Assembly: GCA_030704615.1 (NCBI GenBank)
Contig: CM060731.1
Coordinates: 32,984,001-33,048,000, forward strand
DNA: 64,000 nucleotides
Direction of reading: 5' to 3'
Source of the DNA: Takakia lepidozioides
Lineage: Eukaryota; Plantae; Bryophyta
Part shown: one piece after another, positions 11,051 to 35,968 of the stretch
Layout of the letters: each line of letters opens with the position of its first letter
How positions within the stretch are numbered: the stretch's first letter is position 1
The notes under the pieces: model-generated
Database searches by the model: none
Seen by the model: only the letters and a program-made list of their open reading frames with translations
Told to the model about the DNA's origin: nothing
Made by a program: the position numbers and the translations under genes

Positions 11051-11261
11051 TGTGTGTTCCATCCTCATCGTCCTTTTGTAGTATGATTACATGTCTGTTG
11101 CCATTTTTCGTACCCACGTTTTGTGATTTCATGCTTCCAGAAGTCGATGGATATCCATTGTGATTTTTATGTCTAGGTATCAATGCTGCTACGATCCAGA
11201 TGACAAGCGCACCAACAATGCGATAGTGGAGGATCCCAAACTGAAACGTGGAGGACCTCTT

Positions 11262-12425
11262 GTGGCAAATCCGGCTCTCGGCCAAAGAGAAGGAAATATG
11301 GTGAGAAGGAGGCAAGTGATGTCTGCTTGCTAAACCTGTAGCCCATGGCTAACCAAGGTACCTGAAGATCCCAATCTCCTAGGTGTCCCTTTTGCAAGCC
11401 ATACTTGCGCAAACCCCTCTTCACTATCTAAACCACTCTCTCTGCCAAGCCATCGACCTCAGGATGATCCCGAGAAGTGGTACGGTGGTCTATCAAGGCT
11501 TTATCACACAAAGCCTGAAACTCCCCCAAGAACTCTCTCCCTTGGTCCGTGAGTACCTCAGCTGGAGCACCGAATCGGCTAAGCATACGATCCAGGAATG
11601 CATACGCAGCCCCCTCACTAGCCTTGTCAGGCAATGGAACCAACTCAATCCACTTGGAGAAGTGCTCCACCATCACCAACACATATCTGTATCGTCAGTG
11701 ACAACGGCCCTGCAAAGTCAAGACTCCACCTGTAGCCCAATCCCATGATGGGTAAAGGATGCAACTGTGGTGTAGGGGCATTGAATGAAGCACGCACCCT
11801 GTCACACACCATGCACCTAGCCACGAACTGTTGCACCTTTGTGTGCATACCAGGCCACCGATACTGCCCTTGTAGTAAACTATGAGTGCATCGCGACACT
11901 CCAAAATGCCCCAACTCCTCATGGGTATGCCGCACTAACCATGCACGTTGTGTTGGGTGAGACACGATCCTCACCCGACCATATTCCCATACTCGAAGCA
12001 GGTGTATCCCCTCCCACTTGAACCTCTTGGCTCGTTGCAGGATCCGATCCCTCTCCTTGGCAGTTACACTAGTTGTCGTGTCTCCAGTGCGGAGGTAATC
12101 CAACACAATCGACTCCTCATGTATATCTCTGGCACCATCTGGCTCATCACTAGCCTCAGGGTCATCAGACACTCCGTCTACAGTCATCCCTGTTGTAGGT
12201 CCAACCTGACCTCCCGATGCCAAGATACACAAAAATGCAGATGCATGCCATCCCGGCACCATCTCCTCGTTCGTCTCACCATGCCACCGAGCTCCAGTGT
12301 CATCTTGCTGGCTCGTGCATGGATTGCGACTCAATCCATCCACATCCCTATTGACCAAACCCGGTCGATGCACAACCTGAAAGTCATACTCTTAGAGTAT
12401 AAGTGCCTACCGTGCAAGCTTCCCC
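11262..12425 (-). mobile_element. Ty3/gypsy remnant, RNase H tail plus integrase (pseudogenised)
   Basis: GKLAR*ALIL*EYDF.VVHRPG..N.D.DGLSR; HHCC region HEELGHFG...CMVC; WSLDFAGPL; VLTDQGREF; DGLAER; FSPYFLLFGREP. Has frameshifts. Confidence 0.9.
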
Positions 12426-13093
12426 CACTACAACAGATGAGCGTTTTTATGACTTCACATATGACTATTTTTTCAGTCTTATATGCGTTCATGACTACAT
12501 CACTCTGTAGTGAAAAAAACCCTGTCATAGCGACTAGTCTTTAGGACTGCGTTTTGCAAGTCATATCCATGACTGCTTGCGTGGCACCTGGAGTCCTGCT
12601 GCAGAGAGGGTTGCAGTCACAACTATATGACTAATATATGACTACATTGTCTGTTGAGCGCTGCCTATATGGAGAGGCTTCAGCGGGATACGTGCGCCAC
12701 TGCGCAAGCAACACGTCATGCATTCGTCAGGGGATCATATGACTATATGTCTGCAAAGTGATGCCTACATGGAGAGGCGACGGATGGACACGTGCGCCAC
12801 TACGAATTTGACATGTCACGACTTCTTGCCATGATCATATGACTACATGTCTGCACAGTGATGCCTACATGGAGAGGCGCTAGCGAGACACGTGTGCTAT
12901 GGCATATTTCACACGTGGTGACTACATGACTCGCTCATATGACTACAGGGATGTCTACATGGAGAGTTGTTAGCGGGACACCTGTTGCACTTGATATGTG
13001 ACATGTGGCACACAGACAAAATATATGACTAGCATATATGACTACGGATCTTTACACGTGGTGAAAATATGGATGAAGAATGTCGTGTCATAT

Positions 13094-13747
13094 TGTCGCG
13101 GCCCTTTGCCTTGAGGGCAGGGGGTCGGGACACATGAGGGGCTGCCCCTGTGGTGGGGGCAGCAACAGCGATAGGTATGGGGGGCTGAAGCACCCTTGAG
13201 TGCCCAAGGCACTCAGGGAAGCGGAGGCACTCACTAGGTGGAGCCCCGCACACCGGGTTGTGGTGGGGGTGGCATAGGACTCACCATGGGGGCGGAGACC
13301 TCGTGGTGGGAGTTGTGGGGAGTCTTGGGACTCATCACGGTCCATTGGGGCCGCGGTGAGTGGGCCAAGACTCACCGCGACTCACCACCGGGAATCGAGG
13401 GTCTTCGTGGTGGTTCGCCATAAAATGGCATGGCTGGTTGTGAAACCCCCGCGGACAGCTACAGAAGTATATATAGGGAGTAGTAACCCCGAGAACGGTG
13501 CAAGCCCGTTGGTGACCAAAAACTAGTGAGTAAGCGAGCGAGCCGAAAAGCGACCAAAGAGTGGGGAGCTGTTCCGGACTGCCATCTACCAAAGGGAATT
13601 CCACTAGGCCCAAATAGGTGGAGGGTTATGTCCCGGTGAGCAGCCGAAGCTCCAAGTTGGCCCGGCGGCCGGTTGGGAGTCAGGCGCGCGCATCAAAGCG
13701 AGTAACTATGACTTGAGGGGGAGCTTAACGAAGTGAGGTGCGCGACA
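13094..13747 (+). repeat. 5' LTR (654 bp)
   Basis: TGTCGCGG...GCGCGACA; direct repeat of 19271-19995. Confidence 0.95.
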
Positions 13748-13749
13748 TT

Positions 13750-13761
13750 TGGTATCAGAGC
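13750..13761 (+). promoter_or_regulatory. Primer binding site (tRNA-iMet)
   Basis: TGGTATCAGAGC, 2 nt after the 5' LTR. Confidence 0.95.
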
Positions 13762-13802
13762 TTAGAGTTCAGTACGCGATCATCCTTGGGATTGGCCTCA
13801 TC

Positions 13803-16800
13803 ATGGGGTCGGGCAAGCCGAAGCGAAAGCAGAATGGCCCAAAAGATGATGATCCCGGTGAGCCCGATGGGTTTGACGTGTCACCGAGGCGGCCGTTTGA
13901 GGAAGCGATGCATGTTTCCAAAAATGAGGCCGCTCAAGAGCGGGAGGAATCCGAGGAGTCGGAGCCCGAGGAATCCTTGAGAGCTCCGACAAACCAAGAG
14001 ATGCCTCCCATGCCGGCTGCCTTTTGGGAAGGGTTGTTGGCGCAGTTTGGCGGGACGTTGAAACACGTGTTGAAGGCGGCTAATGCCACTTCCACTAAGG
14101 CAAAGTTTAAGGTGAAGCCTAAGGAACCCAGCACCTTTGAGGGCGTCCAAAATTGGAAGGCACTCAACACTTGGCTCCTGGAGCTAGAGCAGTACTTCTT
14201 GGCAGCCAAGTTGAGTGACGAGGATCGGGTGGAAGTGGCTCCCACCTATTTGAGGGGCTATGCTCAACAATGGTGGCAGAAACGCCTTCACGACCGAGGT
14301 CCAAGCCCGGAAACCTTGAACTGGAGTGGGTTCAAGGAATTGATGAAGAGACAGTTTGTGCCCCTCAACGCGTCTTGGCTTGCCCAGGACAAGATGAGGA
14401 ATTTGAAGCAAACAGATGACATTCGGGGATATGTCCAGGCTTTCAATGTGCTGTTGCTCGAAGTCGCGGACATGGCAGAACCAGAAATGGTCTTCAACTT
14501 TGTGGCGGGACTGGCCCCATGGGCCAAACGGAAGTTGGAGGAGAAGCCACCCAAGACTTTGGACGAGGCTATTGAGAGGGCTGAATGTTTCTCAGATGTC
14601 CCTAGGGGTGAAAGACAAGGCCGTACGGAGCTGAACCACAAGAAGATTCGGCGGGAAGGTGACTCCTTCCGACCGGAAAAGAAGTGGGATAGGCCACGCG
14701 GCGAAAATGGCACGTGGAAATCGAAGGGAGGGCCTTCACACGTCAAGGCGACACCCGGTGCTTCGAAAGGAAAAGCGGGTGGAGCGGCTTATGGCGGACA
14801 GAAGGCGACCTTTGATGGAGTGTGTTTCAATTGCGGGGAGCTCGGGCACATGGCCAAGAAGTGCACGAAGCCCCGGCAATTGAACATGATTCGGGCGACC
14901 ACGGAGCTGTCGGAAGATACCATCAGTCGCTTGGTGGAAGCGGTGGTCGCCAGGACTTGCAAGGTAGGCAAATTTTCTTGTGAGTTGTATCAGGAAACTG
15001 GCGCCTTACGAAAAGGGAGTCAGTTATTGTTCGTGGATGGGATAATATCCGGAACTAATGTATCGTTGTTGGTGGACACAGGAGCGTCGCACTCCTTCAT
15101 GACACCGGCAACGACACAAAAGCTGGGACTCCCGACAAGTGACGTGGGGGCCTCTATTGAGGTGCGTTCTGCCAAAGGAGAACCACAGTTGGCGACAAGG
15201 TTGGCAATTGATGTTCCTCTTCAACTGGGGAGTCGGGAAGGACGTGAGAACTTCACCATCAACGAGATCGATGGAGTGGATCTCATTTTGGGGATGACCT
15301 TTTTGAGCAAATCCGGAGCGGTCATAGATGGCCGCAAGAGAGTAGTCACGCTGCCATGTGGGAATGGTGGCGAGGTTTTACGAGTGTCAGAAACGCCCAA
15401 ATCCGTGGGAGGGCGAATAAACCTTCTGTCAGCAAAGGAGTGGGCCGTGGAGCAGGCACACGAGCCCCAGTTTGTGCTTTACATTAGAGAAGTGAAAGGA
15501 GAAGGCGATGGGGAGCCGAGCCCAGATTGGATCAAGGGGATTTTGGAGAAATACCAGGATGTGATGCCGGAGGATTTACCAAGCGGCTTGCCACCGCGAA
15601 GAGGAGTTGACCACAAGATTGAGGTGATACCGGGATCGGAACCGCCTGCCAAGGCGCCCTACCGGTTGAGCCACAGAGAGTTGGTCGAGCTGAAGACTCA
15701 GCTCAAGGATCTAATGTCAAAGGGGTATATCCGGCCGAATAAGTCACCTTACGGAGCCCCGGTGTTATTTGCAGACAAGAAGGATGGGACGCTGCGGATG
15801 TGTGTCGATTACAGGGCTCTGAATAAGGTGACTATTAAAAACCGGTACCCTTTGCCAAGGATCGACAACCTCTTCGATCAGTTGGCAGGAGCGAAGTATT
15901 TCAGCCGGATCGACTTGCGCTCCGGCTATCACCAAATTCGGGTGGCGGAAGGAGATGAGGAGAAGACCGCGTGCAGGACAAGGTATGGTTCATATGAGTT
16001 CTTGGTGATGCCTTTTGGGCTCACCAATGCACCAGCGACATTTAGCACGCTGATGAACAGCCTTTTTCAGGAGTGGTTGGATGACTTTGTGATCGTGTAC
16101 ATCGACGACATCTTGGTGTACTCGAAAACAAAGGAGGAGCACCTGGAGCACCTCAAAAGGGTGTTCCAAAAATTGCGAGAAGGGAAGCTGTACGCGAAAG
16201 CTTCAAAGTGCGAATTCGGGGTCACGAAAGTGGAGTTCTTGGGGCATGTGATTACACAGGATGGGATCAAAATGGATGACAGAAAGGTGAGGGCGATCTT
16301 GGACTGGGAGCCTCCGACTTCGGTCCCGGGAGTGCGATCCTTCCTTGGACTCGCCTCCTATTACCGGAAGTATGTAAGAAATTTCGCCAAGATCGCGGGG
16401 CCGTTGTCAGACCTTCTGTGTAAATCTAAAGTCTGGGCATGGAACACCTTTTGTGGCCAAGCTTTTGCTGAATTGAAGCAGCGGATGGCGGAAGCTCCAG
16501 TCTTGAAAATCCGGGAGTTCGATCGTCCGTTCGAGATACATACAGATGCGTCGGACTTCGCGATTGGGGGTGTACTGATGCAAGATGGACGTCCAGTGGC
16601 TTACGAAAATAAGAAACTGAATGAAGTGGAGCGACGGTGGCCGACGCACGAAAAAGAGATGAAGGCGGTGGTGCACTGTCTTGAGCTTTGGCGCCAGTAT
16701 GTTGGTTCCAACCCAGTGAAGGTGTTCACGGACAATGTCACGGTGAAGTATTTTGCCACGCAGCCCAAGTTGTCCCCAAAACAACTTAGGTGGCAAGATA

Positions 16801-18365
16801 CTTTGGCGGTGTTCGACGTGGATATCCAGTACAAACCGGGAAGAGACAACGTGGTGGCCGATGCTTTAAGTAGAAAGCAGCAGCTCTTGTTGGTGTACAA
16901 GGGCGAGACGGCGCTCCAAAGGAAGATATGGAAGGCTTGCCGAAAGGATGAGCTGGCGAAGTCCGTGATGCAGGACTTGAGGACGGGGGTTAAATCGCAG
17001 TTCCACTTGCAAAATGGACTGCTCCGGTATAAGCAAAAGCGCCTCTACGTGCCGAAGGGAGGGATCAGGGATAGCCTCTTGAGAGAATGCCATGATAGCC
17101 CGCTTGCGGGCCACGGCGGAGCCAAGCGCACTGCGGCACTCTTGAAGAAAGAGTATTTCTGGCCCAAACTGAGGGAGGAGGCAGAGGAGTATGTCAAGAC
17201 ATGCACCACATGCCAACAAAACCGGAGCGAGTACAAAAAGCAAGCGGGGCTGTTACAACCCTTGCCGATTCCAGAGGGGACTTGGGAAAGCGTCTCGATG
17301 GATTTCATGACTGCTATGCCGCTGTCAAAAGGATTCGATGCAATCATGGTGGTGGTGGATAGGTTCAGTAAAATGGGCCATTTCATCCCCACCAAGGAGA
17401 CGGCAACGGCGCAGGAGACAGGGCGACTTTACTTCGCCCACGTCTTAAAGCATCATGGAGTCCCGAAGGATATTGTCTCGGATCGTGATCCAAAGTTTAC
17501 GAGTAAATTTTGGAGGACACTTTGGAAGAAGATGGGGACGAGGCTGAAGATGAGCACCGCCTTCCGACCTACGACGGACGGCCAAACGGAAAGAGTGAAT
17601 TCCGTAGTGAAGCAATTCTTGCGGAATTACGTGTCGGCAGACCAATCAGACTGGATGGAACACTTAGACGCGGCAGAGTTCTGTTATAATAACACAGAAC
17701 ACTCCGCAACGGGAGTTTCCCCTTTCGTATTGGTCTATGGAAAAGCACCTCTGGTGCCGACAAGTTGGGCCGCCCAGGACGTTGAGGAACCGGCAGTAGC
17801 GGCAGTATTGGAAGAACGCGAGCGTTTGTTGAAGCTCGCAAAGTACAACATTGCCAAAGCTAGGAAACGGTATGAAAGGCAGGCAAATCGGAAGCGGAGG
17901 GAAGTGAAGTTTGAGGCAGGCACAGAGGTCTGGTTGAACATCAAGAATTTCCGACTACCTCTGGAAGTGAGTCCAAAGTTCGTACCTCCGTATGCGGGAC
18001 CCTTTCGCATTCGGAAGGTTATGAATGAGGATGTGTATGAATTGGAGCTGCCGGCAAACAGCAAGGTGCACCCAGTATTCCATGTCTCCCTTTTGAAGCC
18101 TTACTTCAAAGATGAAGCGCGTCCGAATCGGCATCAAGTGTTGCGCCCGCCACCTATGCTATTGGATCATGAAAATGAACCTGAGTACGAGGTGGAGGCA
18201 ATACTTAAGTCGAGGAGGTTCAAGAACCGAGAAACGGAGTATCTCGTCAAATGGAAGGGCTATCATCATGTGGAGGCATCTTGGGTGCGTGCCTCAGAAA
18301 TGGGAAACGCATCCGAGGCGGTTGCAGCTTTCGAAGGGCGACCTCAAAAGCGGAAGAAGCGTTGA
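13803..18365 (+). CDS. Gag-Pol polyprotein: gag, CCHC knuckle, protease, RT, RNase H, integrase, chromodomain
   Basis: Single open frame. [14 protein letters not shown]; LVDTGAS; YIDDIL; TDASD; [12 protein letters not shown]; SMDF/SDRD/TERVN; chromodomain YEVEAIL...YLVKWKGY...SW; C-terminal PQKRKKR. First ATG at 13803. Confidence 0.96.
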
Positions 18366-19270
18366 TTGGGACATCAACCTTGGAGCGTGGGGGAGGAAAT
18401 GCATGCTTAGCCCGGCTTAGCTAGCTTAGGAATCCGATTGCAAAAAACTTGTATTGTACAAAACGTGCTATAAATGAAATGGATTCCAAATGTTGTGCTT
18501 CCTATTTTGTTTGGAATGGTGATGCATGGAATGGTTGGCTAGTGTGTAGAATGCATGCTAGCTTATAAAAGTGGGAGAGGTAAATTGGGTTAATCGTGTG
18601 TTTGCGTAGTGCCGAAATCGGGTGACCCCCATCCAAGGGGCAAGAAAACTTGCGCCTTCTTTGGGAGTTCACGTGCTAGTGCGCACCTGGCGCGTGCGCG
18701 TACTATAACTGCGCTACCGAGGGGGTTGCCTTGTAGTGCGGGCTAACGCGGAAGCTACGTGCTTCCATTCACGTACTATAATCGTGTAGCCTCGGGACGA
18801 AGTCGTAGTGCGGCTTCGGCGTGTTCCCGTACCTCAGGCCAGCATTCCAAGGCGGACCCAATTGTAGTGATTGGGGCGCACGGTTGATTCAAGGTTATCT
18901 TCCTAGTCAAAGAGGGTTCCAGGGAACCCTTGCTCAAGGTGATGCCAAAAGCGGCATCATGAGCGGTCGCAAGCAATGTTGTTGCAGTAAGGCGATTCGA
19001 TCCTCGGGGAGGATCGTTCCTTGGCCTTGAAGTAGGCCAAGAAGAGTGCACTGGGAGGAGCTGGAGAGGCTCCACCCTTGGCCGGGACTTGGAGGAAGTC
19101 GGCCGAACTAGCTAGTGGAGAGTAGAGTCAAGTGTGGGGTTTGGTTCTTTGCCATGGGACGCCATAGTACAGAAACAAACTCCTTGATGTGGGACGCCAC
19201 AACTTGGATGTTTGTTTCTACAAAATGGACAAGTCGATGAGGACATCGACTCCCTGTTGGTAGGGGTGTG

Positions 19271-19995
19271 TGTTGCGGCCCTTTGCCTTGAGGGCAGGGG
19301 GTCGGGACACATGAGGGGCTGCCCCTGTGGTGGGGGCAGCGACAGCGATAGGTATGGGGGGCTGAAGCACCCTTGAGTGCCCAAGGCACTCAGGGAAGCG
19401 GAGGCGCTCACTAGGTGGAGCCCCGCACACCGGGTTGTGGTGGGGGTGGCTCCACAAGGGGTGGTGGTAGCTTAGTGGGACTTAGTGGGGGTGGCATAGG
19501 ACTCACCATGGGGGCGGAGACCTCGTGGTGGGAGTCGTGGGGAGTCTTGGGACTCATCACGGTCCATTGGGGCCGCAGTGAGTGGGCCAAGACTCACCGC
19601 GACTCACCACCGGGAATCGAGGGTCTTCGTGGTGGTTCGCCATAAAATGGCATGGCTGGTTGTGAAACCCCCGCGGACAGCTACAGAAGTATATATAGGG
19701 AGTAGTAACCCCGAGAACGGTGCAAGCCCGTTGGTGACCAAAAACTAGTGAGTAAGCGAGCGAGCCGGAAAGCGACCAAAGAGTGGGGAGCTGTTCCGGA
19801 CTGCCATCTACCAAAGGGAATTCCACTAGGCCCAAATAGATGGAGGGTCTTTCGGGAGAGCGAAGGGGGACCGTTATGTCCCGGTGAGCAGCCGAAGCTC
19901 CAAGTTGGCCCGGCGGCCGGTTGGGAGTCAGGCGCGCGCATCAAAGCGAGTAACTATGACTTGAGGGGGAGCTTACCGAAGTGAGGTGCGCGACA
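19271..19995 (+). repeat. 3' LTR (725 bp)
   Basis: TGTTGCGG...GCGCGACA, preceded by the G-rich tract GGTAGGGGTGTG. Confidence 0.95.
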
Positions 19996-20509: not shown

Positions 20510-23500
20510 CTATCCCTTCCGCAGCTCCATAAGTTTCAGTAACTTTAGACTCCAAAGTGTTGTCTGGCCAACCACCTGCCCCAACTCGGTCTGTTTCCTA
20601 ACACCATTCACATATGGTAGAGGGGTGTTACTGACACATGCCTCTTTGATGTACACACAGGCATAATCAAGGGGCACAGCAGGATACCCGTAACCCACCA
20701 CAGCACCTTGAAGAGCAACAATCAGCCCTACTCCACATTTCTTGCGTTTGGAGTTCACATCCAACAGCCGAACCTCGTCACCCACCCTGAACTGTGATCC
20801 CAACTCCACACAAAAAAGAACACGATGTGAAAACCCATGACATACACACGACTAGGACACTCAACATTTGCGAGTTAAAGAGAGCCCCAACGTTGGAAAA
20901 ATAATAACAAACAAGACAACGGCCTGGACTTACTCCATTTGCAGTCTCCAGTGGTGGTGAGACCTCTTTTGGGGGGCTACTCGTCGGGTCGACACTCTTG
21001 CCCCTCGTCTGTACCGGCTTGTCGACAATATCACCTTTGTTTGTCACAAGTTCCTGTGTCACAGACCAGAGAACAACCAGGAAAGCAATGAGCAAACAGG
21101 AATAGTGAATAGAAACAAAATCCAAGTATGAATCAAACAAAAAAAGCCAACATGAAAAGCTGCAAAGAAAACCTAGCATTAATCAAGCAACCGAGGAGAA
21201 GCATCCAGGAAAGCAATGCAATGAATGAACCCACAAAAATTTAGCCTCTGGAGCACTGTCAGAATGTTTGTACCTTCACAGTAGCAGTGTTGTACGGTTG
21301 TTGTCCGAAAACAGGCTGAGACTCCAAAAACTTGGGAATACTGGCAGCTTTCGATGTCTTCCACAAGAAAGGCCACAACACCTCTCTTAGATACTCATCA
21401 GTTGGTGAATCTGGTTGCACCTTCCATGGCTCTGGAAAATCCCACTGAAGGGAGGATTGTTTGCCGCCTTTCTTGGTGTGTCGTCAACAAGAACAGTGTC
21501 CTCATAAGTCCATTTTGGCCAGTCTGCCCACACTGTAGACAAGTTCTTGAAATATAATGGCTTTGAATCAGACCCCTTACGGCATGGGAGGACTGGATCC
21601 TCGTCACAGTGAAGGGCATCCCACTGGAAAACCAGGTTAGTGTGGGCTGCAAAAATATAGTCCACCATTGGGAAGAAGTTGCGAGCTTGGCAACAAGACC
21701 ACACCGCCACCTCAAAGTGTTCAAAACACTTTTGCAAAAAGTAATAACAGCGTGGTCTCAAAACTACCATCTTCTTGCCACACATCTTCCCCACAAAACC
21801 TTTGGGAAGGGATGCAGGCCCATTAGCAGAATGAAAAGATTCACATAACAGACCATTTAAGTCCAGAATTAGTAAATGCTTCCTCGTTGGTCCAGGAAGT
21901 AAACTGACATTTGGCTTCAACATGTGAGCAGGAAAAATTAAAGCAACCTGCTTGTTTGTTTTGTCCCCGTCTGCATCTTCCTCCCCATCTAAACTCCCAC
22001 ATACCTGCATACCAGAATCCGGTGTGCCCGGCGGCTCTGTCACCATTGCCCCCTGGACCGGTACTGCCTTTATACGTGGCAAGGGCTGAATTTCCACGTG
22101 TACCTCACAATTGGCCTTCCCTGTATCCTACTGCTGCTCGGTCAAATTCAAAAGATCATCAGTGACAGGAAGACATAAGGGCTTAGAGTGAGCACCAGTT
22201 ACCGTCTGAAATTGGGATTCCAAACATTTTGATACTGTCACAGCAGACGTATCCATCGTAGATGTCATTGGTCCTGCGCCTGGTAGATTAATCCCCAATC
22301 TGGTCACAATGGCTTTCTGGTACTCAATCATACTCTGCATCTGTAATTTTAATTCTGCCATGTCACGTCCTTGTGATTCCACCAGTTTGTCCAAGCCATG
22401 CATCCTGCCAACTACTGTAGAATATGCGAGACTTCCCTCCTGCCAATCCATGAAAACTTGCCCAAGTAAGAATCAAACCAAAAAAACCTAGCATGAAGAA
22501 CCGTTGGAAAGAAAACCCAGGCCAAAAGCCGTGAAAAAAACCCTAGCAACCTATGATGCAGCAACCACTCTAGCAAACGTGGAAAACACACTTACCCGCC
22601 TGTCACTCCCAGCTGACAACCGTGACACTGAACCCTCTTGAATTTCATATAATGTAGGTGGGCACCCTGATAGTGTTTCCTACAAATTAATCCATGCCAC
22701 AAACAAACCCATGCCACAAGTCAGTAAGCAATGTGAGGGCTGACTATATACACATAGCAATTCAATGAGGAACAAAATACAGAGTCGTGATGATGCCACT
22801 TACCAAGCGTGCTTCCACCATTGCCTTCCCACCATGGCCAGTCTTGGTAGGATTCAGAATTGCACCATTTGCCTTTTTCATGTTGCCCGACACTTTGTGG
22901 AACACCTCTGTCTGCCAGTAACTTACAAGCTTGTTCCATACCTCGTCAGATACAGTAATGGGTTTCCCCTTACCACCCAACCACGCAGTGTGTGCTTCAT
23001 AATGCTGGCTCTTCATTATTCTGCCAATTGTTTGTTTTAGGTTGAAGTCTTTTAACTCGTGTGGCGTATATGAAAATAGCTTAGCTAGGTGATCTCTGAT
23101 TTCGTATACAACTTCATCAGGTTGGTTGTTGATGGCAAGGGAACAATCTAGCTTGCGATAAGCCTGTCCTTTAAGGGCAGCGTGCCATACATTCCGGGTC
23201 TGACCATACGGGGCTCCTTTGAGGTTCGTCAAAATCACCGTGGGAGGAAGACCTGCAGCTATTCTCTCTTCCTTGACCTTGGCAGCTTCAATTCTGGCTG
23301 AGCTATTAGCCCTCCTTAAAGCATTGGTTCTATCATTCTTTGAAACGGCACCCTCCCCTCCTTCAGAGACCTCCGTGCGCTCAGGAGAATTCAAAGCAGG
23401 ATCCTGCCAAGTAGGGACTGGTGGCCATGGTTGTTGGCCAGAAGGCCGAGGACCATACTGGCCATACTGTCCATAAGCAAAAGGATATTCCGGTGGCCTG

Positions 23501-24627
23501 CCACCCCCATAGCTATTAGGGGGTGGCAAATATGGTGGAGGAGGATACTGGCCATACTGCCCATATGGAGGAGCACCATATTGACCCTGACCATATTGAG
23601 TGCCAGACTGTGGGTACTGAGGCATACCATAATAAGGTGGGGGTACTGGTGGCACAGAACCCACAACGTTGGGAGAGTTAGGGCCACCTCCTGCGTTCTT
23701 GTGGGCGCCATCTCCATTGCTAGCAGCAGGGATCGTGGATCCAGTGCGCTTGTGCTTGCCCTGAAAAGAAATTCCCCCAGTACAATGTGGGTGATTACAC
23801 ATACATATAGGCAGCAAGCAGCAAATCCTTGAATTCAGGCAAAACAAACTGGAAGCACATATCATTTGTAAAGACAAGATTACCCAAAACTCAGTATGAT
23901 CTTGGGCAGTAAATCTCCCAAATTTGATTGGCCCCAATGATGTCCTCCCAGTACATTTTTGAGCCCTCTTAGGTATGGGGTGTTCCTGAAATCCATAGCA
24001 AGAATTCAAATGGACAAACCTGATGGGTCCATGAGAAGTATCCCTCCAAGTTTTACTGATATTCTGGGTGCATAAGTAACCCAAGTATCCCTATAAGTAG
24101 CCATTGTAGCTTAGTACCAGGACGTTGGTTTCATGGGGCAAAGAATTTGAACACACCTGAAGTCTACATTGGCCTGACATCATGCCTTTGGCACTTCAAC
24201 TTGTCTAGTGGAAATCATTTGTGATTGTGCCTTGGCTGACCCCTGCATTGTCCAACTTCCCTGTCTTGACAGACATACCGTATCTCTTCGTGATTTTACC
24301 AAAAACATACATAATTAGAATCATGGTCATTGTGAAGAACTATAACTCACAGACGGAGAAGGTGTTTGTAGTGTAGATGATGGGTGTTTTTGTCCTGCGA
24401 CATGAGCATGGGCATGTTCTCCTCGGCTTGCCGTGGCATCCGCCGACGACGCACTCGCCTCGCACTGGCGTGGGAGGAGTGGATCGTCCTCATCGTCCTC
24501 AGAAGAGCCCTCATGCAGAATCGTAGTCTTCATCGTCTTCAGTCTGGCACTTTGCCTTGCAGGACCTTGATCCCTAGCTTTTTCCTTCGGAGCGCGTGGC
24601 TTGCGAGGGTGATTCGCTCCCGCAAGC
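20510..24627 (-). pseudogene. CACTA TnpA-like gene with an internal FCP1/NIF-type HAD phosphatase domain (multi-exon; at least one stop and one frameshift)
   Basis: Exons ~24627-24351, 23760-22804, 22679-22596, 22439-~21272, ~21052-20932 and ~20803-20510. Ptta/En-Spm-like region (VWNKLVSYW...TGHGG...PPT), coiled coil, LLILDLNGLL...LRP..FL..CFEHFEVAVWS...LVDDTPRK, then a C-terminal Tnp1-like V.I.....PLPY...LG..VG...LW. Confidence 0.7.
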
Positions 24628-25204
24628 CTGCACAAACACCTCCATGACCTCCCTCTCAAACAATCACAAACAAATGTAAGCATACATACCCTAATACTCT
24701 TAAGCCTACGCTGAACCACAGCCGCACCCTACCAGGACGTAATGTCTGCCCACGAATGACGGCGGACATCTCCCGCCTAATGACACACCCTCCTCAAACC
24801 TAATCGTCATTCACTGCATGTTGTTTGCCTCTCTGTTTGTACAAGTCGCAGGTACTCGCCCCCATTTGTGCTATGAAGCTTATGATCGCTGTAGGAAGGT
24901 TAGAGGATAAGGCAAATCGCAAGTTTTGTGGGTGGGTATCCAAAGTCAGGAACTAAACTCACCCATCTATCGACTGTTTGAACGTTGCTTCCACCTCCTT
25001 TATGGCAGCAATCCGGCGCTCTCGGAACTTCTCGTACTCAGTGAGAGGGACTGTCACTTCGAAGACCTTCCGCTTCACCATGGACACTCAGAAACGATAC
25101 TTATAGTATACTATAGATATAGAAATAGCACATTGGCAGCTGGTGCAAAACTAGAGACAATGCACTGTGCGTAGCATGCAAAGAGGGAAGGGGTGATTTA
25201 AAGC

Positions 25205-28200
25205 ATGTACAATGCAGGTGGCGAACGGATGCGTAGGCGTAGAATAGATGACCGTCTATGGCGAATGGAAGAAGCTTATGCCACAAGGAATGGGCATACA
25301 AAAATGCTATGCAACTGCGATGAGTGTCATGGAGGAAAAGTACTATTGTTGGAAACAGTGAGGAATCATTACATGATACACGGGAGGGATCCTCTTCTCC
25401 AACGCTGTTCTCTTCCGGTAAGATCGCCACTTTCCCTTCAGCACTTTAGTTTGAATTTTGAATGCAACGATCCTCTTCTCCACATGTCGACATTTCGTTG
25501 GGTGATTGTAGTCAAGAAGCCATAAGATACAGACGTGACTATGACTACGCCACTTCCGTTATCACTTTAATTAATGCACATGTCGTGTTTTCATTGGTCA
25601 TGTGTAGTCATGTAGTCATATATGACTAAGTAAGTGACTGCAACTATGACTTCAATGGTTACAAATGTCGTGTTTTGATTGGGTGTATATTCATAAGATA
25701 CATACGTTAATATGACTGCATCACTGCAACGTCACCGTGCCTCCTATGTCATAATATGAACAAGTGTCACATCGTTGTTGGTCCACTCACAAGATGACTA
25801 TTGGGATGCAGGGATGTGAATATTCAGATGATGAAGACGAAGGCCCTGCGGCACAGCGGGAGCCCAATGTCACAGAGAACGCAGATGAGAGTGGTGGATT
25901 GGAGGTAGAAATGCAGCGTGCATTGCAGGAAGCGTTTCTCTTTGCAGATGCAAACAGAGAGGACCCCATTCATGGTGGAACCGATCACACATTTGCCGAT
26001 CATGACGATGATCTCGACGATTCCGGAGACAATGAATTTGATGAGAATGCTCACCTGCACGTTGATCCCGAGTATGATAAACTCTTCCGCGCGTCGCAAT
26101 GTCCACTTTTTGAAGGGTGCTCCATCAGCTGGCTGCAAGCAACTTTGACGTTGCTGAACGCATGCACTACCCACAAGTGCACCAATGCATTTGTGGATGA
26201 GCTTCTGGGATTGTTGCGTAAGAGTTTTTTGCCTAAAGAGAATTCATTGCCGAAAACTCACTATGAAGCAAAAACCATGATTGCCAAGATGGGATTGCAG
26301 TACACGATGATTCATGCCTGTGAGCGTGGTTGTGTACTCTTCCGTGGGGAGTATGAGAATGTAGACATTTGCCCAGTGTGCCGCAGTTCCCGTTACATTC
26401 CAGGTCGTGGAAGTGTGCCCAAGAAAGTATTGCGACACTTCCCTGTCATTCCAAGGTTGAAACGTATGTACCGATGTAAATCGATCACTAACCTCATGAC
26501 ATGGCACGACAGACATAAGAACTAGGATGGGTTGGTTCGACATCCAGCTGATAGCAAAGCATGGAGACACATTGACACCACATTTGCGGATTTTGTTGCA
26601 GAGCCACGATCTCTGCGATTTGGATTGGCCTTAGACGGTGTAAATCCCTACGGAGCTCAATCCACAAGTTGGAGCACATGGCCCGTTCTCTTGGTCAATT
26701 ACAATCAGCCTCCGTGGTTAATGACCAAAAAGTTCTGTGTCATGTTAGCGCTACTGATTCCTGGTAAGGAGTCTGTTATCTCGGACAACGTAGATGTTTA
26801 TCTGATGCCCCTAGTGGAAGAGCTATTGGAACTATGGAGAGGGATTGCAGCTCATGATGTTTCCCATCCTCGTGGTCAACGCGAATTCACACTGAGGGCA
26901 GTGTTGATGTGGTCAATCCATGACTACCCTGCATATGGCTTGCTCTCAGGTCAAGTGACGAAAGGTTATGCTGGTTGTCCAGCTTGTGGACCCGGGGTGA
27001 CTTCACAGTAGTTACACACATGTGGCAAAATTGTTTTCCTAGGCCACCGAAGATTTTTGGCTTGCAATCATCCATATAGAAGGTCAAGAATGTTCAATGG
27101 CGCTACTGAGCATGGAACTCCTCCAAAAACGCAGACTGGAACACAAATCAAGGACCTTGCAACAGCTCGCACTGCATGGGTGGAAAACGGAGGGACACCA
27201 GATAGCAGGACAGACCCAGCAAAAACTCATGGAGTTAAGCGATTGTCAATTTTATATGTCTTACCTTATTGGGGGTAATTCCTTCATGGCCTTTAAATTG
27301 GCTGTGTACATTTTTGCGTTTTCTGTTTAAATTGTGATGAGTAAATGCTCAATTGCTTATGTGTTCATTTTGTAGGGTCTCCTCATCCGCCACACGTTTG
27401 ACGCAATGCATTGCGAGAAGAACTTGGCTGAAAATATTATTAAAACTATCTTTGGTGAGAAAGACACATTGAAAGTTCGCCGTGATTTGGAGCTACTTGG
27501 GATGCGCCCGGAATTGTGGCTACAACGTGATCCTGACAGAGCAGATACGTTAATTATGCCTCCTGCCCCTTATGTCCTCACTAAGGCTGAGTTACAAGTC
27601 TTTCTGGAGATTGTGCAGAACTTGAAAGTGCCAACAGGCTACGCATCAGCTTTCAAAAAGCATATGGTGAAGAAGAAGTTGTCAGGCATGAAATCACATG
27701 ACTATCATGTGCTCATGCAGCAAATTATACCGCTTGCTATCCGTGGGCTCATGCCAAGTGGTCCTCAAAGGGCCATTTTGCGAGTATGTCGTGTATTTAA
27801 GAAGTTGTGTGCAAAAGTGGTGAATCCTGTAGAGTATAAGGAATTGAGAACTGAAGCAGTTCTCACTCTGTGTCTTATAGAGAAGGAGTTCCCACCATCA
27901 TTTTTTGATGTGATGACACATCTGGTTGTTCACCTAGTGGATGAGTTGTAGTTATGCGGGCCCGTAGCATCTCGTTGGATGTACCCCATGGAGCAGGCAA
28001 TGAAAGATATGAAGGGCTACGTAAGAAACATGGCAAGGCCCGAGGGGAGCATGGCAGAAGGATACCAATTTGAAGAAGCATTGGGTTTTTGCACAGAGTA
28101 TATGGCAGGATTTTATGGAAGTGTACGAAGGGTGTGGGATGCAGATGAGGCAGAATCTGTGGAACGTGAAGTTGTGGAAGGAAGTTCTAAAGCCCGAAAA

Positions 28201-29357
28201 TTGAATGACCTGTGTGATATTGTACATGAGTACATCATTCAGAACTATCCTCGTCTATCCGTCATGTTGGGGTAAGAAATCTACTTCATTGACATTCAGA
28301 TTTCCAAGTTTTAGTCATTTATCATTAGTTGGCATATGGCGTCTTTTCAAATCTCCCACGCCACCTCTGTCAATCTCCTGGCTGACCCTCGGATTGTGAC
28401 ATGATATATGAAGTAGAGTCCACACGGATAGAAGCCAGACGACGCTTGTTTCGTGAGGAGCAAGGGCTGGAAGGCATGAGCAATCCCACGACAATTCAGT
28501 ACCCTCATGATTTGCATCCTTGTCCTCCATTTGCTGTTTGGCTCCCTCAAGGTGTACGAGATCATCTCTCAATTCAATCAGATGGGCTTGATCCTACAAC
28601 ACGTGAGGAATTACTGGATCTTTCAAGGCCTCCATCATTTACTGCCCTGTCATTCAAAAGTATGACAACGTATGGTAACCATTACAGGGTTATATCCCCC
28701 GGCATGAACACAACAAGTATGGTGTCTTTTGATTGTGGAGTCTCATCTGTTTTCCAGCACCAGCCCATTACCAACAATTCAGGCAATGACATGGAGGAAC
28801 CTACAAGATATGTGGGTCTTATAAGGGAGATTTTGCAAATTGACTATGGCCAAACACAGCCTATAGTGTTTTTGTGTTCGTGGGTACGGGCGAGTTGCGT
28901 GGGTCGTCAACCTATGTCAATGAAGCAGGATGATGTTGGCTTCACACTTGTCAATTTTAACCGTATGCTTCCACCTTCTGAGCAACCTTTTGTGTTTCCT
29001 GGCCAGGTTGATCAAGTGTTTTTTTCTGATTGTGTGAAGGAGCCGGGGTGGAAAGTCGTCCTGGAGAAGAGCCCCTGAGCACGTAGAGTGGTCTGCGACA
29101 TATCAATTGATAATGATGATGTGGCGGAAGTGGAAGGATTGTTAGCCCCACAAAGACTAGAGGAGACTGTGGTTACTGATGGCCCAACATGCAGCCGAGC
29201 GGTACCGGTTACTCGAGAGCAGGTGGCCTCCTTGTACCTCCGAGCACCCCGTATACGTGGTGATGATGTTCAGCCAACCCTTGGAGAAGATGAAGTCTGT
29301 GATGAAGACAATGATACATGTAGTGACCCAGACATAGATGAGGATGATGAAGATTAG
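25205..29357 (+). pseudogene. CACTA Tnp2/TnpD transposase (transposase-associated, Transposase_21, DUF4218-like, DUF4216-like regions) with premature stops
   Basis: CNCDEC; IHACERGCVLF..CPVC; LRHFPVIPRLKR; RHPADSKAW; LALDGVNPY; SIHDYPAYG; DAMHCEKN; GMKSHDYH; RWMYPMEQ; EQPFVFPGQVDQVFF. Stops end the ORFs at 26525, 27011, 27951 and 29078. Confidence 0.93.
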
Positions 29358-30339
29358 ATATGCGCAATTTGTGCACTCCAGTTATAGACCATGCATGATA
29401 GTTTAAGGTGGTAACACTCCCTTCGCATTCCCATTAAGATATCATGCTTGGACACTGGATTTTATGATCAATTATGGAGTGCTTTCCTTTCAGCACCATT
29501 TATTCATTTGTTGTTGCAATTGGCTTTGGACCAACCCGTGCTGGTACCATTGCCATGGGTTCTGCCTGTAATGTTTTCTTGCCATGGATTTGGCACACGC
29601 CACGAAAGGCCATCCAGACCATCCTCTGGAAATGCTCCAATGTTGTTTCAAACATCTCCACATTGCAATGGATACAACACTGACATTAGATGAGTGAAAG
29701 TGAGACTAGACCTCCAGCCAGCCGGCTTTCCCACATCAAATTGAAGGGGATCTGTAGATTATAGATAACGGCTGTTGCCTTCTCAATGTCTTTTCCAATC
29801 ACCTCTGCAATGAACTGGGGTATAAGATCCTTCACATCACAAGTTTGAGCATCACGCACAAGCCACTTACGAGGATAGAGTTTCCAATGCGAACCATTGG
29901 TCTTTTATTGATAGCATTGTTGTAAAATACATGGACCAACATGGTCAATTTCGGGAATGACATATAGTACGCTTTCATGTACTATGTAAGCATGCAACTA
30001 TGTACCAGTGACGTGGCTTGTTCGCCACTTAACCTGTTTGCCCATTCAGCCAGCTCCACATTGTCATGGATTTTGCATGCTGGATTGTGAGGCCATCCAC
30101 ACCGTCCTCTGGAAATGCTATCATGGGGTTTCAGCTATGTCCACATTTCCCTGGATTATGCCTGCACGAAGCAAGGCCAACTGCATTCAGCACCCTCCAC
30201 TTTATTATAGTATTGCAGCAACATTCAAAGCACTTCAATTTGTATCCATCGAAAACATCTAGGCTGGAAAAAGACATTGTTGTAGCAGAACTTAGGAAAG
30301 TACTTCTCCCCTTCCACTACACACGTGAAATGAAAGAAG

Positions 30340-31522
30340 CCAACCAACAGCATACCAGCCAAGAAAATATGAAACCAGCTGCACGGGCCATGTGGACCAT
30401 GTGCAGCTCTTTGATCCGTATGGGTTTACTCCATCCGTAGATACAGCCAATCGCACATTGCGTGGGTCCTCGGCGAAATCGGGCCAAGTTGCATCTATAT
30501 GCTTCCATGCAAGGGAATCTGGGACCATGCCTTACCAAACCATCGTTTGAGGCATTCCTGGAATGCCAAGTCATGAGCTCACTAATGGTCTTGCATTTGT
30601 ACATTCGTAATAGACGGGGGATAAGGGGAAAGTGCCTCAACACCTTGGCTGGCTGTTGTAACCTGCCCACATCATGGTATCGGGCTGCACTGCATTTGGG
30701 GCACTCCATAGCGTCCTTGTACTCTCTTCTGAAAAGTACATGTCCTTTTGGACATGCATGTATTTTCACGTAGTTGAGGCCGAGCTTCCCAATCATTTTG
30801 TTGGCCATGTGACAGCTTTTTGGCATTTCATTTGGTTGTGGAAGCAAGTTCAGCCGAAGCAAAGAGAACAACTCGTCCACAAAATGGTCTGAGACACCGT
30901 GGGTTGTGCATAGGTTCATCAACAGCATGGTGGCAGCAAGCTTTGTGGATTTGCATCCCTCGTACAGTGGCACACATGCTTCTTCTAGTGTCATGTGTGC
31001 TGAATTCTCATCTCCATCTCCACCTCCTTCCACGCCTTCCCCCATGTGAATGCCTTCATTTCCTGCGTCATCACCATCCCCAGTTGTCGCAGCGCCGTCC
31101 CCCTCTTCAGCATCGTCCATGATGTGGAATGCTTCCTGCAACATTCGAGTAATCTCCACCCCTCCGTCCATGCCTGGTTCATGTCCTGCGCCCATGACAT
31201 AATCCTCGTCTGGCCTGTTTGTATGGCTCTCCCGGGGGTGTGCATTGTCCAATTGTGCCCACTCCTCATCGTCTTCGTCTGCAGGTCCATCTCCAATCCA
31301 CACCCGAAATGCTTCATGTCTTTTGTGGTGAAGGAGATGTGTGCGCACACCGTCCTCAGATCTACTTGTAGTGCCCAAACAACGTTCACATGGGCATGGC
31401 ATCCTTGAAAGCCCAAGGGCTCGGGCACGTGCCACTTCTCTTTCCCACAACCTGTCATCTCGGGTGTTCTGTCTACAGGGGTGATTAATTGGAAGTCCTC
31501 CGCATGGGCGAGGGGAACTCAT
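30340..31522 (-). pseudogene. Second, divergent CACTA Tnp2 transposase, N-terminal half only
   Basis: CPCERC; KIHACPKGHVLF..CPKC; VLRHFPLIPRL; frameshift, then PDSLAWKHID...STDGVNPYG..STWPV; truncated there. Confidence 0.88.
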
Positions 31523-32499
31523 TTTTGTTGGGGAGCCTCTTCAATGCAGTTTGTGCACGCTGTTGCAGGGGGCCGGATTCTCCTTTGCAGAGACTCCTCA
31601 ATTTGGCTCTGCCACTCCCATTTCACTACCGTCAATTCCCTCCTCCTGCAATCTCAATTTGAAAGGTTCAGCCGCACATCCTTTGGCAGAGAAGACAGTT
31701 GACATTTTATACCAACTGGTAGATTCCAGAACATGATGGAAAGTTACACTCAACAACAAACCATTTAAAAGCCATCAAGATGCTTCCCATCATAACTAGA
31801 ATCTTTTCAACAAGACACTGAGAGAAATGACCAAAATCAACTAAAAGAACGACATCCAGGAAAACCACCTGTCTCTACAGTTCGTGTGTGTGTGAGGAAT
31901 CGGAGGACGTACGTGGAATTTCAATTTTCACGATTCAGGACGTTGTGATCTTGGGTATATGGTTGAATGTGTATGAAATGTGTGCATTGAAGTGTGAACA
32001 ACCCGACTACAAGGCCAGAACTTGCGCCACTTGTCTTAGGCCATAATGAGTGATCTCCACTCATCGGCGGTCATCATCTGCACAATTTCCGGCTGCATCG
32101 ATTCGTCTCTCAAAATCACATTACGATCAAAAGTTTGTAGCAGGGGGTAGTTCGCCCAATGCCACCCTCAGCGGAAGAGCGAGACGGATTGAGGAATCAT
32201 GTATTGGAAGGTCGAATTCCATCACGGATTCGGCCGCGATCTCCAAATCAAGTTTCGGCGGTCAATCCCGTTCCGTTGCCTTGAAATTGCACCGTGGCGG
32301 GAAGGGAGTCCATTTGTGTGGCTCTATCACCATGGCGGGAAGGGGAGCATGTTAAGAATGGAGCATCGCCCTACCACTTCACTCATTTGTAGTTTGCAGC
32401 TTCTTCCACCATCTTTCTTACTTAATTGTGATTCTTGCAATGTTGCCCTTGAGACGACAACTGCAAGTGACCGGATCCTTTGATCGTCACCTTCAAAGA

Positions 32500-34952
32500 C
32501 ACTTACGTGTAGCAGATCGCAGACCCCCAAATGCCTAGAGAGAAAGCCAGATGGCAGTCAATGCATGCACGGTTGTCAGTTGAGCTACACACGCCGACCC
32601 TCCCCTGACTGCCATCCAGGCCTATAAGAAGCTGACTCCTCCCAAAAATCCAGGGTGAAGCCCATGGGGTACAACACTGCCCCACCAACAAGGACATCGT
32701 ACGAGACCACGTCTGTCACAATGGCCTTGGCTCTCATCACTGAGCCATCTATAGGATGATCCGGCTATAGTCTGATAGCCAACTCATGTCGTGTCATGCC
32801 CCGAACCTGCTCTGATCCTCCCAGAGATGTTTGTATCTAGAAAGGGCACGGCTCCATATCCGCCTCCGTGAGGCCCAAGCCTGCAATAGCAGCTCTGTCC
32901 AGCATCTATGGCTGAGCTCCCGAGTCCAACAAGACCCGCAGTGGCCGGTACCTCTTGCCTGCCGGTCCATTCAAACAGAAAATGTCATCCTGGTTGTTTA
33001 ACATGACAACTCTAGGTGTCACCATGGCGCGCTAAATGGCTGGCCTAGCGGGCAGTTCCATCAACCTGGCAGCTGCAGCTTGCCATGGCACCGCTGTGGC
33101 AGTCTTGACCCTCACATCTGAGGATCTCTCCGGCACTACACCTCCCATTATCTCCGCAGAAGATGAAGTAACCTCCCCACTCTCACAGAGTGTAGCTGCC
33201 AGCCTGAACACCTCTTCTGGTCTTACCCCCGGCGTCGCAATCATGGTAGCCGAGAACAATGGAGCTTGGCACACAGATGTGGCCGCCCCCCAGTAGCACA
33301 CTAACTGCCGTAGCCTTGGCAACACTAGGTAGTGGTGCTGCCCGTGTAGCTCTCCCCAATGGCATAGTAACCTCCGCCTTGGTAATAGTCGGGCGAGAAC
33401 TAGGTGCCATGGACGGCGTCAACACTGTCTCTGCCAATGTGAATGACTGAGGAAGCCTGGCCCGACGGCTTGCCTCCCCACGCTGTGGATCCAACTCCAC
33501 CTCTACACCCTGTGGCTCAGGAACTCGTGGTGCTCTTCGAATCACTGCCGAGTTGACTCCACTTGCACTAGTGGTAGTGCTGCCCCGCTCATAGTGGTAG
33601 TGGTAGTGCTGCCCGACACTAATGGTAGTGGTGCCCCACCCACAGTGGTAGTGGTAGTGGCACCCCTCACTAGTGGTAGTGCTGCCCCGCACATGAATCC
33701 CATGCCTCCCATGTCTCCTCCCTCAGGAGCAGGAGGTGGACTATCTGGCCTTGGAGCCGGTACCACCTGAGCTGTGGCCATGGCAGCGAGCCTCTGCTCT
33801 AGCTGCTGAAGCCGGTTGGCCATGCCTTGGTCACCACCCTGACCTCCGCGTCCTTGGCCATGTTGAGCTTGCCCTTGGCCTGCACCTCGTGCCTGGCCAC
33901 CTCATCCTCTCTAGGCTGCTCCACCTCGCCCCCGGCCACCATTGTTCTTTTGGAACTGGCCTGGGCGCAACTCAGGATGCAAACCATAGCACCGGGCTTC
34001 TCCATGCCCGTACTTGCCACAATGCCCACACTGCAACTGTGTAGGCTGTGCCGGTGCCAAACCATTGCCTCCCTCTGGGGAATCCTTCTTGACATGGGGT
34101 CCTCCACATGTCTAGTACACCACATCCGCCCGTTGTTGGCTTGCAAATGAAGGGAGAGACCCCTGCATCTGAGGTCCTCTCTGCCCTTCCCTGGGCTTCA
34201 CCTGAGCCCCCTTGTTGCCTTGAGCACGTTGAGGTAATGGCTGGCTAGGAGCACCACTACCCCGTGGTGCCTCCTTAACAAATCCCACCATGACCACTCG
34301 TTCCTCCACCCTCAGTAGGCTTCCATTGGAACTCTTGCAAGCTCCTCAACTTCTCTGTCCTCACCCCTTGGTAGTTCCTTCTCAACTCTTCGAAGAACTC
34401 CACAACAAGGTTGAAGGCAGGCACCGCCACTGGTGCTGGTGTAGCAGTAGCTTGGGTGGACGTCGTAGTTGCTGTACCACTAGTCCCACTACTGCTCGTG
34501 GAAGCTGCTGTTGTAGCTGCTGCTGCTGGTGCAGCTGCCGGTGTGGCTGCTGCCCTTGTGCCTCTAGTGCCTCTAGTGCCTCTAGTGATTGAGACATAGT
34601 CGGGTGACCAGTACATCCTCCACTCCTCGATCTCAACATCGTGCCCCTGCCTAAACTCATGGTAATCATCCATGGGCAGCCCCTCAAGGTGCTGAAACAG
34701 CCCCTTCCATGCCATAAAAGGCGTAAACAGTTGTGGATTGCGCATTTGCTGCAAGTCACACCAACTATCAAACTCTTGGATAAAATCATCCAACTCAATG
34801 GTGCCCACCGCCCCAAAGTACCTACGTGGCCCTTTGGTGGCTCCATACATCTCCTCCACTGTGTCCCACAACAATGGCAAGGAAACAACTTGCACCGCCG
34901 GTGTGAGTCCTCTTGATTCATAATCCGAATTATAACCTTCCGTAGAAGACAT
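32500..34952 (-). mobile_element. Ty3/gypsy remnant, gag plus protease (probably the 5' half of the 11262-12425 element)
   Basis: gag-like ELDDFIQEFDSWCD; CCHC knuckle CGHCGKYGHGEARC (~33990-34030); protease RVLLDSGAQ (~32912-32940) and YDVLVG. Same strand, and domain order is collinear with the integrase fragment. Confidence 0.8.
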
Positions 34953-35968
34953 AGGAGGTGAAGGTGGCCTAAACCGCACACATCGTCTCGTATGAGGCTC
35001 AACTCGAGAAAGATGAGCCCACCACGATCTGCCGTGAAGATAACAACGCCAGGTGCCCAAACATGTATTGGCCCTTGGATTGATACTTGGGTCAATCCCA
35101 AATGTCAATATATGAAAGCTAGCTATTTCCTAGCTAACTTCACACTAGTGGTAAAATAACTTGACATACGGTCTGAACCAGTCTGCTCAACCAGTCTTTT
35201 GATGTCTGAGTCTGCTGTACCAAGTTGGGACTCAGTCTTCGAACACTCTGCTGTGCCAGCCTTCTCCTGAGCAGACCAGTCTCCCGGTTTTGAACGTGCC
35301 TGCACCTGGCTGACTAGTGAGCCTCATGCGGTCTGCCCATCAGATTGGCCATTCTCAATACGGTGGACTCTCACTTACTCTGCTGACCAAACTTGGCAGT
35401 CTACTGGCCAATGCCATCTGCCTGTACTCTACCACTCCGGTGACTCTCGACACTAGTCTGTTCACAAGTGCAGACTCATGGTTCCCAATTGCATCTGCCA
35501 GTCTGCCGGACTGGTCCCAACTCCTCAGTCTGTCGGACTCTCGTCAGTCTGGCGACATTGCCCTCTGTCTGCTCACAAGCCTACGCATACCCTCTTCCCG
35601 TACTCTGGCAGTCTGCTGACTCTCGGCTGTTTGCTGACCAGTGGACTCCCTTGGTATGTTAAACAAAATGATTGTGTATGCAGGGGTAAGTTCGCTTAAC
35701 AACATGCAATGAATTGGTCACAAGTCTACAGCAACTACTCCACACTGCACTCATATGCGACCAATAGGATGTGTATACAAAGTCATATTTTATTTCATTG
35801 CAAATGCTCAAAAGCATGCTTACATGACAAAAGCGTCCTATGGTCCACAGACTGCCCATACCAAGCGGACTGAGCAGACTCGCCAGACTCACCAGACCGA
35901 GCGGACTGAGCAGACTCACACTTCTGAGCAGACTGGAGTGACCAGACTCAACAGACTGGGAGGGCTAC

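Follow-up and report, generated by a model that had tools for sequence, protein, structure and literature searches.

A phosphatase-fold NIF domain in the TnpA-like accessory gene of a decayed CACTA transposon of Takakia lepidozioides

The En/Spm transposons of maize and Arabidopsis carry beside their transposase gene, TnpD, a multi-exon accessory gene, TnpA (TnpA-Spm1/Spm3), together with clustered subterminal motifs, and TnpA gives a weak match to the Transposase_24 profile (preprint 10.64898/2026.08.24.746577). That preprint also describes TnpA-like genes with transcripts of their own, apart from that of the transposase, and reports that proteins of this type seem to be confined to flowering plants. 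In Arabidopsis, TnpA attaches to motifs clustered at the element ends, recruits demethylation and depends on the ROS1/DML demethylases. Two other systems are relevant for their enzyme cargo. In CACTA-ULP1 of grapevine and rice, a host protein-modification enzyme domain is kept within a plant DNA transposon gene (PMC2528002). KAONASHI (KIU)/VANC-Ulp1 of the VANDAL MULEs likewise keeps an enzyme cargo, which in KIU is fused to an anti-silencing factor (PMC13317346). Here we analyze 64,000 nucleotides of the bryophyte Takakia lepidozioides (assembly GCA_030704615.1, contig CM060731.1, positions 32,984,001 to 33,048,000, forward strand). This whole stretch, hereafter the window, holds a decayed CACTA transposon whose TnpA-like accessory gene carries a NIF domain of the FCP1/SCP phosphatase fold.

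The accessory gene resembles En/Spm TnpA in its predicted multi-exon build, in its place beside TnpD within a CACTA element that has clustered subterminal repeats, and in a weak, sub-threshold match to Transposase_24. It differs in carrying the NIF domain and in standing head-to-head with TnpD, and its relative at a metagenome locus, L012, points to seed-free plants; the word 'phosphatase' occurs 0 times in the main text of the preprint. CACTA-ULP1 and KIU likewise hold a kept enzyme, but theirs is a SUMO protease, whereas the cargo in the window is phosphatase-like, of the HAD type with a DxN motif, and is embedded in the accessory gene, further exons being predicted downstream of it. We found no CACTA element with an FCP1/NIF domain described in the open-access literature; the first-pass annotation was a reading of the letters by a model that knew of no account of this architecture. 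We place the NIF-bearing TnpA-like gene among enzyme-carrying transposon accessory genes such as CACTA-ULP1 and KIU, as a variant with a different cargo.

The NIF domain (PF03031) lies in an open reading frame on the minus strand (21387-22127; E = 2.8e-13; score 50.3 bits, Pfam cut-off 21.8), and the motifs from which a near-complete FCP1-homology domain had been recognized are present. This frame is in frame with an upstream stretch (22131-22457), with a TAG at 22128-22130 between them. Coil and NIF domain were thus rightly placed in one frame across the TAG, although the coiled-coil-like start of the exon is read by eye from its heptads. We predict a gene of seven exons on the minus strand, running from an ATG at 25081 to a stop at 20510 and comprising 1,008 codons (1,007 aa) if an extra letter at 21435 is restored; otherwise the last two exons fall out of phase. 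Donors are GT throughout and acceptors are AG at five of the six introns. Predicted exon 1 (24963-25081) has the ATG and a GT donor, and predicted exon 2 (24351-24627) is of low complexity; the gene that had been noticed therefore starts further upstream and is divergent from TnpD. Exon 3 (22804-23760) encodes a P/G/Y/Q-rich stretch followed by the TnpA-like core, and predicted exon 4 (22596-22679) encodes 28 aa. Exon 5 (21274-22457) comprises the coiled-coil-like start, the TAG-containing linker and the whole NIF domain, of which the core (21438-21890) has a DxNG motif I and keeps the Ser, Lys and DD motifs, and the C-terminal part (21274-21435) lies behind a 1-nt frameshift. Splice prediction adds exon 6 (20934-21053), a 40-aa linker, and a last exon (20510-20791) for a 93-aa domain that looks rich in beta strands.

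Other copies were assessed from public contigs of two runs, X1 and X2, aligned to the window. One contig from X1 and one from X2 (under 90% alike) read G instead of A at 22130 and have a Gln codon in place of the premature TAG, as the first-pass annotation had guessed (CAG>TAG). The TAG, first taken for the only separator, is joined by a second coding lesion, the 1-nt frameshift near 21435. An X1 contig has one extra letter at 21435, so that the frameshift is absent and the frame of the C-terminal part is open. In the window that part is read in another frame and yields a NIF match of its own (E = 0.15, profile positions 153-204) that continues collinearly from the main match, which ends at 156. 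Support for the fusion as a trait of the whole element family comes from other contigs in which neither coding lesion is present, from splice phases that agree once the extra letter is in place and not without it, from the kept conserved columns, and from a NIF-free relative with the same core exon (see below). Since the stop and the frameshift are absent from other copies, the family likely used the borrowed phosphoprotein-handling module. The domain might instead be used in a different transcript, by way of an alternative linker donor (for example at 22103 or 22004) or as a separate product, and the long fusion would then not be the main protein. Donor-like and acceptor-like sites do occur inside exon 5, and alternative splicing is described as usual in En/Spm (PMC8195511), yet a single open frame runs from the coil to the end of the NIF domain and is followed by a phase-correct donor. 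We consider this explanation very unlikely.

The reading that we favour, and to which we give an even chance, is that the window holds a dead copy of a CACTA family whose active members made a fused TnpA-NIF protein; this protein would bind the terminal repeats and bring to them a phosphoprotein-binding module that is weakly catalytic or inactive as a phosphatase. The seven exons would be spliced into a single protein of ~1,007 aa, and exon 3 would be the TnpA DNA-binding part, reading ATGACT repeats. The NIF domain would come from the eukaryote-wide C1271.03c-like family, and it would have entered the gene at a point after the coiled-coil-like stretch and before the last domain. Enzymes with DxDxT use their first Asp as nucleophile, and the second has been proposed to serve as general acid/base (PMC9062747). 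Without that second Asp, the domain may bind or slowly turn over a phosphorylated nuclear partner, such as the C-terminal domain of Pol II or a silencing factor. By analogy with TnpA and with the Ulp1-bearing VANC/KIU, this action might help the element stay transcribed or demethylated. The DNA-tethered phosphatase or phospho-binding role put forward in the first-pass annotation is likewise an inference.

The fold of the NIF domain is clear. A structure model built on a 56-row alignment reaches a predicted local distance difference test (pLDDT) score of 91.5 and matches Scp1/CTDSP with Z 14.6-15.2 and a root-mean-square deviation (rmsd) of ~2.1 over 126 residues. It also matches the folds of CTDNEP1, Tim50, UBLCP1 and Fcp1, and UBLCP1 ranked first in a profile search of PDB sequences. 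Compared with the Scp1/CTDSP, CTDNEP1, UBLCP1 and Fcp1 structures, the likeness extends to the fold (Z 11-15, rmsd 1.9-3.4), the first Asp, the Lys and the DD pair, whereas these have DxDxT where the window domain has DxNxL, and at 16-24% identity their substrates are not transferable. Relatives were taken as the best 150 of 1185 clusters at E ≤ 0.001. Among the matches listed, the best are C1271.03c-like FCP1-homology proteins, a name that the database gives to P0019 and P0087. They are 36-43% identical to the window domain and have in common with it the DxNG form of motif I as well as 36 of the 41 conserved columns. They differ in that those examined are without transposase or TnpA domains, while the window domain is intronless, fused and on a long branch.

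Motif I reads DLNGL, and the DxDx(T/V) of canonical FCP1/SCP phosphatases is absent, the second Asp being replaced by Asn and the Thr/Val at +4 by Leu; the domain is accordingly not classed with the canonical CTD phosphatases. Asn occupies the second motif position in 96% of the 167 closest NIF domains; the DxN form was thus inherited from the donor family and is not the result of decay or of a transposon-specific loss. The first-pass annotation had read the DxN motif as a sign that the domain may be a pseudophosphatase. Within the same fusion, the NIF domain could be a working, atypical DxN phosphatase tethered by the TnpA part to the element or to host promoters. It retains the nucleophile Asp along with the Ser, Lys and DD residues, positions at which conservation among the 167 relatives is 86-100%, and members of the family occur in plants, in other eukaryotes and in giant viruses. 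The replacements at the second Asp and at +4 speak against catalysis, as does the fact that we found no paper in which the DxN family is assayed, and we judge this alternative unlikely, though less so than the other rivals discussed here. Some host members of the subfamily (P0015, P0016, P0104, P0046 and P0039) have DUF724/Agenet, GeBP DNA-binding or CCCH domains. These partners hint at nuclear roles, and some may be merged gene models.

The window domain keeps 36 of the 41 columns conserved at 80% or more, including the first Asp, the Ser, the Lys and the DD pair. The database median is 39 of 41, and 50 of the 167 domains keep as few or fewer. In the remaining columns it matches 16-24 of ~102, and uniform decay is rejected (binomial P ~1e-9 to 1e-11, six reference domains). 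Among themselves, land-plant members show 48-82% identity, but to the window domain only 36-41%. At the level of sequence, this pattern indicates purifying selection on a long branch. The DxNG subfamily was also found in giant-virus metagenome-assembled genomes (three loci, L013-L015), and because these are 27-30% identical, compared with 36-43% for the other matches, a viral donor of the domain is not favoured. No locus was retrieved from metagenome contigs with the NIF query, and none from viral contigs with P0003 as the query.

Relatives with and without the domain were sought among 12 TnpD loci from metagenomes, most of which do not extend far enough to contain the accessory gene. One of the 12, the decayed L012, has a homologue of exon 3 (26% identity over 161 aa, E = 3.6e-8, 0/500 shuffles) with the same intron position. 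It is followed by a small exon, at the position of predicted exon 4, and then by an exon with a coil-like beginning, from which a last domain is reached within ~109 aa. A NIF match is present in 0 of the 12 loci, L012 included. The last exon aligns to the same-position domain of L012 no better than shuffles (112/1000), and hhalign and global alignments of exon 4, coil and last exon to L012 are likewise not above shuffles, so these correspondences are positional only. In L012, 7.5 kb separate the gene from a TnpD that follows downstream in the same orientation, and the two may be parts of different elements. The presence in L012 of the core exon without the domain points to insertion of NIF into the gene. 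The introns that flank the NIF exon (22458-22595 and 21054-21273) are homologous to each other (0/300 shuffles), suggesting that local sequence was duplicated where the domain inserted. At another locus (L003:782-1684(+); Pfam E = 1.6e-8), an open frame with twin BRCT domains closely precedes a CACTA TnpD that looks intact, and it may lie inside or outside that element; BRCT is a phosphopeptide-binding domain.

A Tnp1 (PF03017)-type C-terminal domain is typical of TnpA, and the exons after the NIF domain had been thought to encode one. This label gained no support from the searches. The last exon matches no Pfam family at E ≤ 10, its best Atlas value (0.89) is to unnamed viral clusters, and no homologue was found among 121 candidates restricted to longer proteins. 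The TnpA likeness of the gene is that of exon 3. In the Atlas, exon 3 reaches 0.91-0.94 to Streptophyta clusters, and in the cluster at 0.91, 32% of members have PF03004. No homologue of exon 3 was found among 1543 candidates restricted to longer proteins. We regard the TnpA identity of the accessory gene as likely, with a Pfam match that stays under its cut-off.

Several observations weigh against the favoured reading. The match of exon 3 to Transposase_24 (PF03004; E = 1.1e-4, 22.8 bits) falls below the cut-off of 28.7 and covers profile positions 2-39 only, and, as regards the tandem tri-helical HTH DNA-binding domain of TnpA, a single-sequence structure model of this exon is helical but, at pLDDT 40, unusable for a fold search. 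The predicted acceptor of exon 5 (22458-22459) reads AA, not AG, in this copy. An alternative acceptor at 22487 was rejected, as it leads to a TGA after four codons. No single contig bridges coil and NIF domain, the diverged X2 contigs spanning 22062-22191 only, and X1 may be the source of the window itself. The X1 and X2 contigs show no splice joints, and the fused transcript is a prediction. No TnpA-NIF fusion was found among 160 matches, all of which were compared by BLAST with the other exons and 73 of which were scanned with Pfam. In a quick tree the window domain is unplaced, on a branch of 1.74, within no supported group and joined to another long branch. The literature search found no substrate for the DxN family, and two papers that name two putative Arabidopsis members report no function for them. 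Coding-exon differences to X1 comprise 5 silent and 9 replacement changes, which are uninformative and give no sign of selection. Finally, the conserved columns could partly predate capture.

The last two points suit a passenger, in which a host NIF stretch was transduplicated in frame into the TnpA-like gene and never used there, its conservation predating capture. CACTA elements often capture gene fragments (PMC13317346, PMC2528002), and the relative L012 manages without the domain. Such a passenger has to be squared with a domain that stands so far from land-plant host domains, which are much closer to one another, and still keeps its conserved columns, and with a frame that is open at both lesions in other contigs and followed by downstream exons in phase. 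We hold it to be distinctly improbable.

The gene that bears the NIF domain is internal to a CACTA element, a class whose standard anatomy is described in PMC8195511. The left CACTA terminus (12426-12439, plus strand) cuts a frame that we take, by its motifs, to be Ty3 pol at its RNaseH end. It is preceded by a candidate 3-nt target site, CCC, at 12423-12425, of which the partner copy is missing. A subterminal repeat array (12450-13093, plus strand) follows with a period of ~100 nt, and between 12426 and 13093 there are 12 copies of ATGACT, compared with 0.6 per kb elsewhere. Between this array and the gene is a nested Gypsy/chromovirus long terminal repeat (LTR) element (13094-19995, plus strand) with an open 1542-aa frame, LTRs that are 89% alike and a CATAT target duplication flanking both sides. 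Since it is an insertion with its own duplication, the subterminal repeats and the accessory gene are parts of one element, and the gene is internal because the left end and the array lie beyond the nested Gypsy. TnpD (25202-29357, plus strand) has Transposase_21 (PF02992; Pfam E = 3.4e-57), DUF4218, DUF4216 and a weak Transpos_assoc match, and it starts ~120 nt from the divergent accessory gene. It contains three in-frame TAG stops; decay is thus copy-wide, and this copy is a dead transposon. No right CACTA end with a matching terminal inverted repeat was found within the window. The best candidate, at 60020-60037 with 3/18 mismatches, was rejected, being without a target site and without repeats.

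Further features surround these genes. The closely spaced opposite-strand starts at 25081-25205 suggest a single compact bidirectional promoter, and ATGACT repeats reappear in the region of the first TnpD intron, at about 25520-25650. Part of another TnpD, from its 5' end, lies at 30367-31540(-) and shares 42-59% identity with the first TnpD; CACTACA occurs at 30315. Very deep contigs of X2 (depth 592) and of a further run, X3 (depth 774), match 120 nt at 29742-29861 at ~87%, and this segment is either a captured gene piece or a small repeat. To the left of the CACTA element, 11173-12425(-) presumably holds the integrase and RNaseH end of a Ty3-like element, and to the right, 32500-35129(-) holds frames that we take to be gag/protease-like, both named by their motifs; reverse transcriptase is absent, and a Pfam scan of the right-hand frames gave no match. 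One retroelement split by the CACTA insertion, with a later deletion, probably explains the pieces on both sides. A tandem array of ~1-kb units, 96-98% alike, occupies 6466-9310.

Outside the window, DxNG NIF domains also occur in other transposon-like proteins: P0008 combines a DxNG NIF domain with a weak Ulp1 match (E = 0.0085), P0003 is 87% alike to P0008 in the domain, and P0074 combines such a domain with a weak plant mobile domain match (PMD; E = 1e-4). In a broader proposal, the DNA transposons of seed-free plants would have repeatedly recruited a DxN-type FCP1 domain as an effector. Here it would sit on TnpA, a sequence-specific DNA binder, and deliver a phospho-reader or phosphatase to Pol II or the silencing machinery at the element ends, giving a phosphorylation-based anti-silencing route parallel to the SUMO route of KIU/Ulp1, with a TnpA-like gene outside flowering plants. 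We regard this proposal as possible but doubtful.

The steps that lead from DNA binding by TnpA to activation and demethylation are understood only in part. A phosphatase-fold domain on TnpA names a candidate pathway, the phosphorylation of Pol II or of chromatin factors, that is testable by deleting one domain. With this gene, Ulp1 would no longer be the only class of enzyme cargo kept by such elements, and TnpA-like genes would extend beyond flowering plants. It would also offer a way into the DxN subfamily, which is eukaryote-wide and for which the literature yielded no assay.

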